Source: a virus (lineage: Duplodnaviria; Heunggongvirae; Uroviricota; Caudoviricetes). From it: DNA of 30,286 nucleotides. This document shows, piece after piece, positions 6,084 to 28,250 of this stretch. Both the position numbers and the translations under genes were made by a program. Location: IMG/VR virus record IMGVR_UViG_2778261087_000001, positions 1-30,286 of that record; one strand, 5' to 3'. Numbering within the stretch: the stretch's first letter is position 1; every line of letters begins with the position of its first letter. Below the pieces are notes generated by a model. It was not told where the DNA came from, did no database searches, and worked only from the letters and a program-made list of their open reading frames with translations.

Positions 6084-6150
6084 TATTACCTTAAAAACCA
6101 CATATGGATAGATAACCCATAAATACGAACAGATATTACCTTTCAGGTGA
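6084..6150 (+). promoter_or_regulatory. bipartite intergenic motif, copy B (TATTACC-N7-CCACATATGGAT ... TATTACCTTTCAGGTGA)
   Basis: TATTACC at 6084-6090, CCACATATGG at 6098-6107, TATTACCTTTCAGGTGA at 6134-6150; about 75 bp upstream of the plus-strand ORF at 6227. Confidence 0.5.
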
Positions 6151-6226
6151 TTCGCAAAACGTGCTGGATAGCAAACAAATTATTTGATACTGTATATTTA
6201 TACAGTTATTGCATGGAGAAGATAAG

Positions 6227-6484
6227 ATGCAGCAGTATCACTATCCACTGGAAGACGGATTTACCGAAAGGATTCACACGCCGGGAGGCGTCAGGTCACT
6301 GGTGGAGGGATCGCACTTGATGAAATTACTACGGGATCTCGATAAGGATGGATTTAATGTCGATGGCCCACTTGCCGAACTGACTGCACTGATTAACTAC
6401 GTCACCAGCTCACAGATGTCTATGCAGGATCTGCAAACACATCTCGACTATTGTGCCGAACAATTACGAAAACAAACCAGATAA
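6227..6484 (+). CDS. hypothetical small protein, paralog of the Bro-N protein C-terminal domain
   Basis: Track ORF starts at TTG 6209; ATG 6227 has GGAG 8 nt upstream. Shares the pattern H-x-P-G-GV...L-E-S-LM-LL...DG-V-G-AELT...QTH with residues about 160-228 of the downstream Bro-N protein. Confidence 0.5.
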   Translation: MQQYHYPLEDGFTERIHTPGGVRSLVEGSHLMKLLRDLDKDGFNVDGPLAELTALINYVTSSQMSMQDLQTHLDYCAEQLRKQTR

Positions 6485-6796
6485 GGTTTGCAATTACCAA
6501 CTGGAGTGCTTATATTTACCTTTGCGGTAAATTTACATCGCACTCCTCTTGTGCCATAGTAATCGGGCACTGGCAAAATCCAGTGCCGGGATTGGCGTCC
6601 CGGGTTACTACAGAGGCACATATGCCGCATAAGCGGTTTTTTTATGTGTAAAGCGCACCTATTCTATGGTGGGCTGTGTGGGGGCACCGAAAGGTGCGCC
6701 GGGTCCTTTGTAGCCGGTTACGCCAACCCTGTACAGTTCACCACCAACCGATTGGCGTCGGTAGTGGTGATTAACCTAACTACAAAGGTGATCACT

Positions 6797-7483
6797 ATGA
6801 CTGCTAACGTAACCCCATCTGTTTTTCATTTTGAATCAGAAGCAACCATTCGAGCCATTGTTATTGATGGAAATCCTTGGTTTGTTGCCAAAGACGTTAT
6901 TAAAGCTCTTCAACTGACAAACCCCACTATGTCAATAAAATCTCTTGATGATGATGAAAGGGCTAAATTTAACTTAGGCCGTCAAGGCGAAACCAATATT
7001 ATCAACGAGTCAGGCCTCTACACACTGATCCTCCGCTGCCGCGACGCAGTGACACCAGGCACTATCCCCTACCGCTTTCGTAAATGGGTTACAGGTGAGG
7101 TTCTTCCTCAGATCCGCCGCACCGGAAGTTACATTAAAAACTCGCTCCCGCAGGAAGAACGCATAAAGATGGTTGCCGACCAGGTAGCCAGCGCCACAGC
7201 ATCAGCAGTGATGCAGGCAATGAAGGTAGAGAACAAAACCTACAGCGCCCCACTGAAGCCCGGCTACCGCAGCCTGATTCATTCGCCGTCTGGTGTTCTT
7301 GGACTGACGGAGAACTCACTGCTGATGAATCTGCTGAACCAGTTACAGGACGACGGGCATGACGTATCGGGCGCGGCGGCGGAGCTGACCACCATGTTCT
7401 GCTACATCGTCGGTGTGAGCAAATGCCTGCGTGATATCCAGACGCACGCGGAGTACATCAGCGACAAAGCAGGATTCTTCTGA
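6797..7483 (+). CDS. Bro-N domain protein (antirepressor-like)
   Basis: From ATG 6797 (AAGGTG 6 nt upstream): VFHFE...IRAIVIDGNPWFVAKDVIKAL...SLDDDERAKF is a typical Bro-N signature; the track extension upstream to 6644 has no RBS and is rejected. Confidence 0.7.
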   Translation: MTANVTPSVFHFESEATIRAIVIDGNPWFVAKDVIKALQLTNPTMSIKSLDDDERAKFNLGRQGETNIINESGLYTLILRCRDAVTPGTIPYRFRKWVTGEVLPQIRRTGSYIKNSLPQEERIKMVADQVASATASAVMQAMKVENKTYSAPLKPGYRSLIHSPSGVLGLTENSLLMNLLNQLQDDGHDVSGAAAELTTMFCYIVGVSKCLRDIQTHAEYISDKAGFF

Positions 7484-7547: not shown

Positions 7548-7564
7548 TATTACCTTAAAGGTAA
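7548..7564 (+). promoter_or_regulatory. TATTACCTTAAAGGTAA motif, copy D, abutting the RBS
   Basis: Near-perfect palindrome TTACCTTAAAGGTAA immediately 5' of AAGGAGG (7564-7570) and ATG 7577. Confidence 0.45.
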
Positions 7565-7576
7565 AGGAGGCGCGAT

Positions 7577-7744
7577 ATGACAGCGTTGAAAAATCGTACT
7601 CAGCACAATGAACAAGCCAAGCAATGCTGGGATGTCATTGGAAAAGTTATGCTTGGTCGCGCAAGCAAAGAGCGCGACAAGGATATGGTTTACCAGACAG
7701 GAACATCTTTTAGCGACTTCAAGGCGGCATTTCGCTCCAAATAG
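7577..7744 (+). CDS. hypothetical small basic protein (55 aa)
   Basis: Below the 60-aa track cutoff; ATG with consensus RBS AAGGAGG 6 nt upstream; stop 20 nt before the next gene start, suggesting a two-gene operon. Confidence 0.5.
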   Translation: MTALKNRTQHNEQAKQCWDVIGKVMLGRASKERDKDMVYQTGTSFSDFKAAFRSK

Positions 7745-7764
7745 AAGCACATCAGGAGTTTTCC

Positions 7765-8208
7765 TTGAAGTTTAACATTAGAATATCTAATAGTTTTCTA
7801 CATGGGGAAAGCAACACCCCTTTCGCTGTAGACGGACCTTTCCTTACTGATGATGAAATAAAAATCATACAAAGGTTTTTAGAGGATGTTGCCAATGGAA
7901 GGGCGCTTGTTGGAAAAAACAAGCCCTCGTGGGTTGATGATAACCATGATAAAATTCCCGGCTCAGACAATTATGAGCAAGAGAATTATTGGCATTATCA
8001 TTGTGGGCCAACATGGTATCCAAACACATTTAAGAATTATACCATTAACTTAAATTTCAACCCTGGCGGAATGCATTCTAATGAATGCATTCATTATGCA
8101 AAAAATGATAATGAAATTGTCATTGTTGGATTTTCAAGAGAACACATACCTTTCCTTTCATCAGATGGAAACAACAATCCGCTTTTTAATGATGAAGAAG
8201 AAGAATAA
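7765..8208 (+). CDS. hypothetical protein, AT-rich moron (147 aa, acidic C-terminus)
   Basis: TTG start with AGGAG 6 nt upstream; markedly AT-rich codon usage with rare AGA/AGG/ATA codons, unlike flanking GC-rich phage genes; followed by a strong terminator. Confidence 0.5.
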   Translation: MKFNIRISNSFLHGESNTPFAVDGPFLTDDEIKIIQRFLEDVANGRALVGKNKPSWVDDNHDKIPGSDNYEQENYWHYHCGPTWYPNTFKNYTINLNFNPGGMHSNECIHYAKNDNEIVIVGFSREHIPFLSSDGNNNPLFNDEEEE

Positions 8209-8229
8209 GCCCGCGCTGCGGGCTTTTTT
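8209..8229 (+). terminator. rho-independent terminator
   Basis: GCCCGC-GCT-GCGGGC hairpin followed by TTTTTT directly after the 147-aa ORF stop. Confidence 0.65.
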
Positions 8230-8301
8230 GTGGACGAAACAAAAGTCAGTGCTACACTCATTGACGCCACATTGAGGTGGCTTATAGATGGAAATTTCAC
8301 A

Positions 8302-8463
8302 ATGAAAAAAGCATTTGCTGCACTGTTCGTTTTGTTGTCTCTGGTAGCTTCAACTCAGGCCTTTGCCGGCCGTTGTCAGCACGACAGCGATACTGCCGCT
8401 GACGGCTCCCGCTGCGGTGGGCGTTCTGCGGATTCCCGTCCGGGCGGCGGTGGCATTCGTTAA
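8302..8463 (+). CDS. small secreted Cys/Gly-rich peptide (53-aa precursor)
   Basis: From ATG 8302: MKKAFAALFVLLSLVASTQAFA is a classic signal peptide (AFA-G cleavage), then a 31-aa Gly/Arg-rich region with two Cys; weak RBS. Confidence 0.4.
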   Translation: MKKAFAALFVLLSLVASTQAFAGRCQHDSDTAADGSRCGGRSADSRPGGGGIR

Positions 8464-24998: not shown

Positions 24999-25077
24999 TA
25001 TTACCAATTTAACCATATATGATTTATTTATCGTAGATAGTTGACATTTAACGCACGAATTATTACCTTTCAGGTAG
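24999..25077 (+). promoter_or_regulatory. bipartite intergenic motif, copy C, with TTGACA; candidate promoter of the tRNA unit
   Basis: TATTACC (24999-25005), CCATATATGA (25013-25022), TTGACA (25041-25046), TATTACCTTTCAGGTAG (25061-25077). Confidence 0.45.
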
Positions 25078-25399
25078 GTAAAGGGTTCATTACGGTTACT
25101 AACCTGACTGGCTTGTCGTTAAATTGAACAGGTGGAGTGAGCTTTTATTTTGAGCAGTACGGCGTATGGCACATGCGCCGATAGCGGTCTGGATACGTTT
25201 AAGGGGCACCCTCCCTTGCTCGGGCAAACGAACCAGGTAGCCGGAATGTGCAAGTCGAGCGGTTTTATTCCGCGCACGGGGATTCACCATCCCGGCGATT
25301 CGGTGTGACTCCTCGGAAGATACGAGGGTACAACGATGAGAGCATTTATGGAGCCGCGACAAAGTGTGGCGCCTTAACAGGCTAAGTGCTCTCAGCGTT

Positions 25400-25476
25400 G
25401 TGGCATTAGCTCAGTCGGACAGAGCAACCGCCTTCTAAGCGGTTGGTCGCAGGTTCGAATCCTGCATGCCACGCCA
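25400..25476 (+). tRNA. tRNA-Arg (anticodon TCT)
   Basis: 77 nt; 7-bp acceptor stem GTGGCAT/ATGCCAC, D arm GCTC...GAGC, anticodon stem ACCGC/GCGGT with loop CTTCTAA, T arm GCAGG-TTCGAAT-CCTGC, discriminator G, CCA end; acceptor stem differs from host argU as recalled. Confidence 0.85.
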
Positions 25477-25561: not shown

Positions 25562-25639
25562 ACAGCAGGACGCCATTGCGATGACTTCATGCTGTAAACC
25601 AGTACAGCCACGGAAGGCATAACTCATTGCTTCCAGTTC

Positions 25640-25674: not shown

Positions 25675-26055
25675 ATGAACGACCAGCAAATCGAAAAAGA
25701 AATCGTTGAGAAAGGCAAAACGGCACCGCGAATCACCCCGCAGCACATCGAAGATGTGATTAAAAGCGAGCATTACTTTACTGCTTATGATGGACGAAAT
25801 GGTGCCATTTCCAGCAACGAATATTGTGGCAGAGAAAAACCAGAAGAAGGCGATCGTGATTTATCACCATTGAAGTTGCTCACTTTCTGCGTACTGGTGC
25901 TGAAGAATGGCTTCACCGTCACCGGAGAGAGTGCCTGTGCAAGCCCGGAAAATTTTGATGCAGAAATTGGTCGGAAGATTGCCCGGCAGAATGCTGTAAA
26001 CAAAATCTGGATGCTCGAAGGTTACTTGCTGAAGCAGAAGTTAAGCGAGCAATAA
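25675..26055 (+). CDS. phage Gp49-like protein (function unknown)
   Basis: 126 aa, AAGGTGA RBS; segment LTFCVLVLKNGFTVTGESACASPENFD...IWMLEGYLLK matches the Gp49-like family as recalled. Confidence 0.55.
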   Translation: MNDQQIEKEIVEKGKTAPRITPQHIEDVIKSEHYFTAYDGRNGAISSNEYCGREKPEEGDRDLSPLKLLTFCVLVLKNGFTVTGESACASPENFDAEIGRKIARQNAVNKIWMLEGYLLKQKLSEQ

Positions 26056-27621: not shown

Positions 27622-28214
27622 TGATTGCCATCCTGACGTTCTTTCAGTCTCTTCCTGGCTGCCGCTATGCGATCAGCAATTGTCACATTCACATTAACAT
27701 CCAGGCGTTCTTTGAATGCGTTGACGTCGACGTGCTTACCAATCAGTTCGAGGTTCTTCACCTTGTCAGGCCATTTAATTTTTTTGAGGATTGTCTCTAT
27801 CGAATCCTCGTTCATGTTCATGATGGTCGATGACAGATCAAAGCCACTAAGCGTAGTGCGCCAGATTTTCGGCCACTCGCGGATTGGCTTAAGGCTCCCA
27901 TCGTCGTTGAGGATGTCGATCACGTCCATCTGGTCGATCTCCACCAGACGCATGAGAACGTAATCAGCACTGACGCGCATTCGTTTGTTGCGCTCCTCCA
28001 TCAGCTCGGCAATCCGTTTTTGAATGCGTTCATCGCGCATCATGACACTGGCTTTAACTGCCGCTGTATTTGGGGAGAATCCTGCGTTAATCGCTGCCTG
28101 AGTCTGGTTTTCAGGCGTTTTGATGTATGACTGGCAATAAGCCTCCTGCATTGCTGTTAGTGGCTTAAATTGCGTTGATTTGCGTTTATAGGTTTTAGGT
28201 TCAGCAGGCATCAT
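27618..28214 (-). CDS. terminase small subunit
   Basis: Basic helical protein immediately upstream of the large terminase; track ORF extends to TTG 28292, but ATG 28214 lies after an upstream terminator and direct repeats and is preferred. Confidence 0.6.
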   Translation of the reverse strand: MMPAEPKTYKRKSTQFKPLTAMQEAYCQSYIKTPENQTQAAINAGFSPNTAAVKASVMMRDERIQKRIAELMEERNKRMRVSADYVLMRLVEIDQMDVIDILNDDGSLKPIREWPKIWRTTLSGFDLSSTIMNMNEDSIETILKKIKWPDKVKNLELIGKHVDVNAFKERLDVNVNVTIADRIAAARKRLKERQDGNQ

Positions 28215-28221
28215 AACCACC

Positions 28222-28250
28222 GTGGTAATAGTTACCGTTGTGGTAATAGT
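28222..28250 (-). repeat. two 11-bp direct repeats (ACTATTACCAC on the minus strand) upstream of terS
   Basis: GTGGTAATAGT on the plus strand at 28222-28232 and 28240-28250; contain the same TATTACC core as the plus-strand motifs. Confidence 0.5.

Follow-up and report, generated by a model that had tools for sequence, protein, structure and literature searches.

Why does one phage locus encode the same protein domain twice, once as a small protein of its own and once fused to a Bro-N domain, with a highly structured spacer in between? The question is raised by IMG/VR record IMGVR_UViG_2778261087_000001, all 30,286 nucleotides of which were analysed (hereafter the window) and which represents a Uetakevirus (epsilon15/phiV10-like) prophage or phage of Escherichia coli. 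The original prediction had placed the small gene at 6227-6484 and the end of the Bro-N gene at 7483, and these coordinates are correct: the small open reading frame (ORF) of 85 amino acids (aa) runs from ATG 6227 to TAA 6484, and the Bro-N ORF ends at 7483. The small gene is ant, the ortholog of the antirepressor gene of phage SPC32H, and the Bro-N protein carries a paralog of Ant at its C-terminus. Together they probably constitute two antirepressor modules, under separate control, that are directed at one phage repressor, Rep.

One domain, encoded twice

The similarity between the two copies extends over nearly the whole small protein and needs no gap. In BLASTP, residues 2-79 of the small ORF aligned with residues 147-224 of the Bro-N protein with 31 of 78 positions identical (40%), 58% positives and E=6e-16. 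The Smith-Waterman score of the pair was 162, as against 26.6 +/- 4.4 (maximum 62) in 2000 shuffles, and because it lies so far above them (z=31), the similarity is attributable neither to chance nor to low complexity. Profile searches led to the same pairing, since both proteins were matched by phrog_450 (9e-48 for the small ORF, 1e-35 for the Bro-N protein) and by PDB chain 5D50_E, 'Anti-repressor protein' (4.1e-47 for the small ORF, 9.9e-14 for Bro-N residues 147-223). The claim that a domain is encoded both alone and in fusion with Bro-N was thus borne out, and the pairwise and profile alignments proposed as its check are significant, with similarity that is not confined to low-complexity residues. 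The motif on which that claim had been founded (H-x-P-x-GV, L-x-E-x-S-x-LM, DG-x-V, AE, QTH) corresponds to the columns that are invariant in a 19-sequence alignment, namely Y4, P19, G21, L25, S29, D41, G42, V45, E51, Y58, T71 and H72.

The homology to Ant covers the whole C-terminal domain (C-domain) of the Bro-N protein (residues ~147-224), which is, by these alignments, an Ant paralog. In register, the DNA of the two copies is 48% identical, with a longest identical run of 7 nt; a recent tandem duplication is ruled out by this value, and the copies are therefore regarded as old paralogs. Pfam and NCBIfam returned only spurious sub-threshold matches for the small ORF (DUF724, UpsF), and neither library models the domain. 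In structure prediction with AlphaFold2 (AF2), the whole Bro-N protein reached a mean predicted local distance difference test (pLDDT) score of 71.6, with 80-90 in the Bro-N part and less than 50 in the linker and the start of the C-domain, and a Foldseek search of the PDB with this full-length model gave no significant match. The isolated C-domain was predicted confidently (pLDDT 82.7) and is helical in the model. The homology claim for the C-domain rests on sequence evidence.

The stand-alone copy: a probable SOS-controlled antirepressor

The phmmer match of the small protein to 5D50_E is full length, residues 2-84 aligning with residues 3-85. Its homolog in SPC32H/SPC32N, annotated 'ant: anti-repressor protein', is 88% identical (tblastn), and counterparts are annotated in relatives as phiV10p24 and epsilon15 gp19. 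The gene also occupies the position of SPC32H ant, with the tailspike gene on one side and the injection-protein module on the other, and its flanks, a divergent tailspike gene and convergent membrane-protein and injection-protein genes, are the same in both phages. In PDB entry 5D50, SPC32H Ant was crystallised with the repressor Rep. SPC32H Ant has been reported as a tetramer (PMC9638917), which binds the C-terminal domains of Rep, splits the DNA-binding Rep tetramer to dimers and induces the prophage (PMC9638917, PMC9986798), and it acts via the C-terminal tetramerisation domain of Rep (PMC9986798).

An exact LexA (SOS) box, CTGT-N8-ACAG, lies 21 nt before the ATG of ant (Table 1). The box aligns with that of SPC32H, its half-sites show no change among SPC32H, phiV10, Tyrion and E. 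coli 98E11, and it is present at ant in 83 of 84 related loci (here and below, the evaluable loci from 80 IMG/VR records with an ant at least 99% identical and 5 species representatives). Kim & Ryu 2013 are said to have placed SPC32H ant under LexA repression. By these features, ant is predicted to have a LexA-controlled promoter region of its own.

The fused copy and its proposed RNA lock

The gene of the fused protein starts at ATG 6797 and encodes 228 aa. A start at ATG 6644, which belongs to a mechanical ORF of 279 aa, was rejected because 1-base indels among relatives break the extended frame and because the region is a C4 RNA; the 51-aa extension gave no Pfam match. The 228-aa protein matches phrog_130, 'anti-repressor Ant' (2.6e-55), and has full-length Bro-N::Ant homologs of at least 67% identity across Enterobacteriaceae. 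One homolog, ORF4 of phage ZX5, has a C-domain 96.5% identical to that of the window, and its overexpression lowered lysogens from 10^9 to 10^6 plaque-forming units (PFU)/mL equivalents (1000-fold) and rep transcription by 75% (PMC9782041). The authors of that study noted the Bro-N domain alone in ORF4 (PMC9782041), and the small ant of ZX5 is annotated 'hypothetical'. By analogy with ORF4, from which the literature support comes, the Bro-N protein of the window would be a second antirepressor.

The spacer between the two genes had been described as highly structured, and this part of the original prediction holds, as two Rfam RNAs score above their gathering thresholds there; what had been missed is that they are an isrK-type small RNA and a C4 antisense RNA. 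The isrK copy ends in an intrinsic terminator (stem 6624-6637 plus a T run), the sole one that a terminator scan found on the plus strand of the region. In the C4 RNA, the 12-nt loop of the second hairpin contains CCUUUGUAG at 6705-6713, whose perfect complement overlaps the Shine-Dalgarno sequence 8 nt before ATG 6797. ZX5 and phiV10 carry compensating 1-nt deletions in loop and target (CCUUUUAG / CUAAAAGG), by which the pairing is kept. When 33 distinct cassettes of related loci are compared, loop and target covary and fall into four classes, namely CCUUUGUAG / CUACAAAGG, CCUUUUAG / CUAAAAGG, CCACUUAG / CUAAGUGG and CUACUAG / CUAGUAG, and in all four the loop position is constant and the target is placed 8-12 nt ahead of the start codon. 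Such covariation speaks for antisense occlusion of the Bro-N ribosome-binding site as the probable mode of control.

An icd/orf45-like coupled ORF was looked for before the Bro-N gene and none is conserved there, as 1-base indels (window/Tyrion versus ZX5/phiV10) shift every frame through 6644-6796. Coding sequences (CDSs) annotated as 'ash family protein' in ZX5 and as 'host cell division inhibitor Icd-like protein' in RefSeq H93 and H94 overlie the C4 RNA. As genes, such 'ash family' and 'Icd-like' CDSs over 6662-6796 were rejected, because the C4 RNA lies there and frame-shifting indels are tolerated. The ZX5 CDSs concerned by annotation gaps are QZE12053.1 and QZE12052.1. In many relatives (e.g. 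L019, L020, L028 and L041), the distance from the ant stop to the isrK start is ~920-1160 nt, as against 82 nt in the window, which indicates an insertion between ant and cassette, probably of toxin-antitoxin genes.

Operator-like palindromes

In phages with an identical ant, such as ZX5 and phiV10 among others, Rep belongs to the 5D50_A family. The palindrome TTACC-N5-GGTAA, which clusters around rep in SPC32H and ZX5 and has one site upstream of SPC32H ant, has 7 occurrences in the window where 0.44 would be expected, and is probably the operator of Rep (or Cro). It lies upstream of 83 of the 84 ant copies. At the cassette, a perfect copy abuts the -35 element of the putative isrK promoter, and 86/86 isrK copies have such a palindrome in front of them at exactly 51 nt from isrK +1, the half-sites being constant and the 5-nt spacer variable; phiV10 and Tyrion share the palindrome at this promoter. 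Such an arrangement would place the isrK/cassette promoter under Rep control, like Op51 of P1 immI. A further perfect palindrome follows the cassette and forms an inverted-repeat pair with the one at isrK. Sites in the window also occupy intergenic spaces of the late region.

Table 1. Features of the ant locus and the operator-like palindromes, in window coordinates
Feature	Position	Strand	Basis or remark
Window palindromes TTACC-N5-GGTAA	4146-4160, 6136-6150, 6516-6530, 7550-7564, 25063-25077, 28214-28228, 28232-28246		
Rep-operator-like palindrome TTACCTTTCAGGTGA (1 mismatch)	6136..6150		upstream of ant
LexA (SOS) box CTGTATATTTATACAG, exact CTGT-N8-ACAG	6190..6205		21 nt before ant ATG
ant, 85-aa stand-alone antirepressor (SPC32H Ant ortholog)	6227..6484	+	5D50_E, phrog_450, SPC32H ant
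Perfect palindrome TTACCTTTGCGGTAA	6516..6530		abuts -35 of putative isrK promoter
Promoter-like site TTTACA-17-CATAGT with TG	6532..6560	+	consensus scan; putative, placed for start at isrK +1
isrK-type small RNA	6567..6643	+	Rfam RF01394, 74.7 bits (gathering 50), E=1.9e-14, full length
C4 antisense RNA	6662..6748	+	Rfam RF01695, 78.5 bits (gathering 45), E=5.2e-14, full length
C4 loop target CUACAAAGG, overlaps Shine-Dalgarno of Bro-N gene	6780..6788	+	perfect 9-nt complement of 6705-6713
Bro-N::Ant-domain antirepressor (predicted), 228 aa	6797..7483	+	Pfam Bro-N, phrog_130
Bro-N domain, residues 18-104	6848..7108	+	Pfam PF02498, 5.8e-20, 72.1 bits (cutoff 25.6)
Ant-like C-terminal domain, residues 147-223, ant paralog	7235..7465	+	5D50_E 9.9e-14
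Perfect palindrome TTACCTTAAAGGTAA	7550..7564		downstream of cassette, upstream of ORF 7577

Distribution and modularity

When 1.84 billion representatives were searched exhaustively with a profile, just 66 clusters came up at E<=1e-3, and the family is therefore considered small and enterobacterial. Most of these clusters are stand-alone proteins of 80-95 aa, and in some the domain forms the C-terminal end of an AntA, Bro-N, pRha or ORF6N protein. Word-based searches gave close relatives only (136 close homologs of the small ORF), and a scan of genome contigs gave 5 loci only. In the phage collection, 35 records have ant, 19 of them with at least one copy of the fused type (B-type) and 16 with ant alone, the latter being all 12 Salmonella records, PAS61, YDC107_2, BUCT554 and BUCT711. 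Among complete E. coli genomes, ant is present in 563/5426, and an evenly spaced sample of these genomes yielded 37 loci with ant, of which 33 have a B-type copy and 4 have ant alone.

The number of cassettes per ant locus is 0, 1, 2 or 3 in 8, 59, 16 and 1 of the 84 loci, respectively (76 with at least one B-type copy), and 84 of the 94 B-type copies in these loci have their own isrK and C4 upstream. The cassette is absent in SPC32H, epsilon15 and SPN1S. It had been proposed to ask whether both genes always co-occur: they are adjacent in ~90% of E. coli-lineage loci, but ant stands alone in 8 of the 84. In phiV10, a frameshift breaks the fused domain in two (194 aa + 29 aa), so that the cassette is evidently dispensable. 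ant is a conserved core gene of the phage genus, and the Bro-N gene is an accessory, shuffled element.

The fused proteins are exchangeable at their heads. Their last ~78 residues (Y-x-x-PLKPGYRSLIHSP...KAGFF) are identical under Bro-N, AntA, ORF6N and P22_AR_N heads, and the identical C-domain also spans four Bro-N classes whose heads are 59-99% identical. The shared C-terminal block is co-extensive with the whole small Ant.

Several rearranged forms of the locus were encountered. Two fused cassettes, once three, are present in many E. coli relatives, including L006 (NZ_CP131685.1), L007 (NZ_CP049839.1) and the IMG/VR loci L024, L029, L053, L056, L059, L072 and L096, and they are often convergent, the identical ends that code for the C-domain facing each other. 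As the two small genes between the cassettes are oppositely oriented in L006 and L007, inversion by recombination between the inverted C-domain repeats is suggested. The 84-aa protein P0139 (L009 4001-4255) is a natural chimera with an A-type N-half and a B-type C-half, which is consistent with recombination between the two copies. Found on 4 contigs, it occupies the ant slot of a divergent relative and replaces both genes and RNAs; this relative is without isrK, C4 and Bro-N, and downstream of the chimera come a 48-aa ORF and a YafO toxin gene. In Klebsiella, P0133 (L098-L100 4001-4288), a 95-aa stand-alone protein of the B-type domain, lies in a small prophage remnant or chromosomal island with AlpA-like and HicA/HicB-like genes, which is not a Uetakevirus prophage.

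A probable pair of antirepressors for one repressor, and the alternatives

We consider it likely that the locus carries two antirepressor modules on one fold, a LexA-controlled Ant and a C4-gated Bro-N::Ant, and that the fused protein targets the same Rep. DNA damage would lead to LexA cleavage, Ant synthesis and disassembly of the Rep tetramer. The accessory, immI-like cassette would be ordered as a promoter with its Rep-operator-like site, isrK with its terminator, C4 and Bro-N::Ant. Most of its transcripts would end at the isrK terminator, and in read-through RNA the C4 loop would pair with the Bro-N Shine-Dalgarno sequence and block translation, as in P1/P7 c4-ant. The fused protein would serve as a second antirepressor, its Ant-like domain acting on the same Rep under an RNA lock that is independent of SOS. 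This lock would open if C4 is absent or non-cognate, that is upon infection or upon superinfection by a relative of another C4 class; alternatively, removal of Rep may open the cassette promoter and so amplify induction. A common target is supported by the C-domain, which is constant within the lineage that has one Rep and diverges roughly with the C-terminal domain of Rep: its identity is 79% for Tyrion and 55% for Klebsiella, compared with 73% and 44% for the Rep domain, in two comparisons only.

Several observations weigh against this proposal. The fused domain is only 40% identical to Ant, and its binding to Rep is one that we infer. A rep gene was looked for in the window and is not present. 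Between the Rep of the E. coli lineage and that of SPC32H, identity is only 42-43%, and it is 40% over the C-terminal domain that Ant binds; since Ant is 88% identical between the same lineages, the matching of Ant and Rep in the E. coli lineage is itself assumed. Moreover, because no icd/orf45-like ORF is conserved, the activation mechanism of Gifsy-1 may not apply as described. The disparity between Ant and Rep conservation is a puzzle, unexplained if the two form a tight co-evolving pair; it could be the fused paralog, and not the small Ant, that is matched to Rep in the E. coli lineage.

The most serious rival is that the Ant-like domain is an oligomerisation module only, and that the head recognises the target, be it DNA or the repressors of co-resident prophages, and not the phage's own Rep. 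The heads are indeed Pfam hallmark modules of classical antirepressors, several of them within one prophage would fit several targets, and Ant is a tetramer. Nevertheless, a domain of this sort is found identical beneath unrelated heads in a one-Rep lineage, its divergence tracks that of the Rep C-terminal domain (again with the two comparisons only), and ZX5 ORF4 acts on ZX5's own lysogeny (PMC9782041). We regard this rival as improbable.

According to the original prediction, the stand-alone copy could act on the Bro-N protein as decoy, inhibitor or partner, and a related idea is that the paralogs form mixed oligomers in which the small protein is partner, decoy or dominant-negative of the fused one, or the reverse. 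Tetramer formation by SPC32H Ant (PMC9638917), core positions conserved in both paralogs, their adjacency in ~90% of E. coli-lineage loci and the chimera P0139, which suggests that A and B halves are compatible, would all accommodate it. This explanation did not hold up well, because the small gene is the ortholog of an autonomous antirepressor gene with its own LexA-controlled promoter region and is found alone in 12/12 Salmonella records, 4 more phage records and 8/84 loci. Where ant is alone, as in SPC32H, epsilon15 and SPN1S, it is autonomous and a partner is not needed. The Bro-N gene, in turn, is the accessory part, with 0-3 copies, interchangeable heads and a frameshift in phiV10; separate control (LexA versus C4 RNA) and an identity of only 40% between the paralogs argue in the same direction. 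Mixed oligomers as the explanation of the locus are thus quite implausible. As for the notion that the similarity is fortuitous or compositional and the small ORF no gene, nothing favours it, and it has already been refuted by the alignment (E=6e-16, z=31), the ortholog of solved structure and the 136 close homologs.

The proposal of two antirepressors may be extended into a multi-input array of E. coli Uetakevirus prophages, in which one Rep-targeting Ant fold stands under LexA and 0-3 C4 locks of at least four specificities, with interchangeable sensor or DNA-binding heads, as a heteroimmunity code of the P1/P7 style in podoviruses. Within such an array, the small Ant and the fused proteins might form mixed tetramers that integrate SOS and RNA signals. 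We hold this extension to be a tentative and rather doubtful one.

Comparison with known systems

The Ant/Rep system of SPC32H is reportedly the subject of Kim & Ryu 2013 (J Virol 87:11775) and Kim et al. 2016 (PNAS 113:E2480), with structures PDB 5D50 and 5D4Z. The window resembles it in an Ant of 88% identity and equal length, in slot and in LexA box, and relatives with identical ant share with SPC32H the Rep family and the operator-like palindrome. It differs in that no isrK/C4/Bro-N cassette follows SPC32H ant and in the low identity, only 42-43%, between the E. coli-lineage Rep and that of SPC32H.

In the P1/P7 immI operon, c4 antisense RNA, icd and ant follow one another; the operon was reportedly studied by Citron & Schuster 1990 and by Heinrich, Velleman & Schuster 1995. 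The likeness to the window cassette consists in a same-strand C4-family RNA that precedes an antirepressor gene, with a loop complementary to the ribosome-binding region, and in the coexistence of several loop/target classes with a single repressor, the situation of P1 and P7 heteroimmunity. If Rep binds the operator-like site at the operon promoter, this site would be comparable to Op51. Unlike P1 and P7, the window phage is a podovirus, has no conserved icd-like ORF and carries isrK before C4, and its antirepressor ends in an SPC32H-Ant-type domain, with a LexA-controlled second copy adjoining.

The modular Bro-N/KilA-N/AntA/ORF6N/Rha antirepressors, among which P22 Ant is counted, are said to have been described by Iyer, Koonin & Aravind 2002. 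With these and with ZX5 ORF4, the fused protein shares an N-terminal Bro-N head and a variable C-terminal module; what is different is that its module is here recognised as a paralog of a repressor-binding protein whose structure has been solved.

The isrK-orf45-anrP region of Gifsy-1 comprises isrK with a leaky terminator, a C4-like processed RNA (STnc1160) and an antirepressor gene (PMC4825925). The same order, isrK with terminator, C4-type RNA and antirepressor gene, is found in the window, but an equivalent of orf45 is not conserved in its cassette. Gifsy-1 was not among the tblastn matches to the Ant-like domain in the phage collection.

Other features of the window

After the cassette, there are three cargo ORFs on the plus strand (7577-7744, 7765-8208 and 8230-8463) with lower GC (44%), which match phrog_8607, phrog_5954 and phrog_3117; none of the three (7577-8463) has a Pfam match, and the phrog_3117 ORF also matches a moron family of 'membrane associated protein'. 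In relatives, this cargo hot spot is occupied by YafO or TacA toxin-antitoxin genes. Elsewhere, the portal and terminase genes have between them a tRNA-Arg(UCU) gene (25400-25476), which is preceded by a TTGACA hexamer that adjoins a Rep-like palindrome (region 25042-25476). A second CTGT-N8-ACAG box, CTGTAAACCAGTACAG, is located at 25592-25607, just upstream of the ORF at 25675-26055 (phrog_322, function unassigned).

Significance

Each component of the locus is already known, that is SPC32H Ant, immI-type control by C4/isrK and modular Bro-N antirepressors. What appears to be unrecorded in accessible sources is that the C-terminal module of widespread antirepressors is a paralog of Ant, and that this paralog lies beside the LexA-controlled original, in a shuffled array with several C4 lock specificities. 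A solved, repressor-disassembling Ant is in this way linked to the unannotated C-domain of Bro-N, AntA, ORF6N and P22_AR_N antirepressors, which gives these a concrete candidate effector module. Several annotations can be corrected, including phrog_450 'unknown function' (which contains SPC32H Ant), ant as 'hypothetical protein' and the 'ash family' and 'Icd-like' CDSs over C4.

About one in ten complete E. coli genomes (563/5426) carries the locus, and the majority of these probably feed both an SOS signal and an antisense-RNA signal into a single repressor. A natural experiment on RNA-based heteroimmunity beyond P1/P7 is available in the covarying C4 loop/Shine-Dalgarno classes. If the array extension were true, superinfection by a relative whose lock is non-cognate could lead to induction of the resident prophage.

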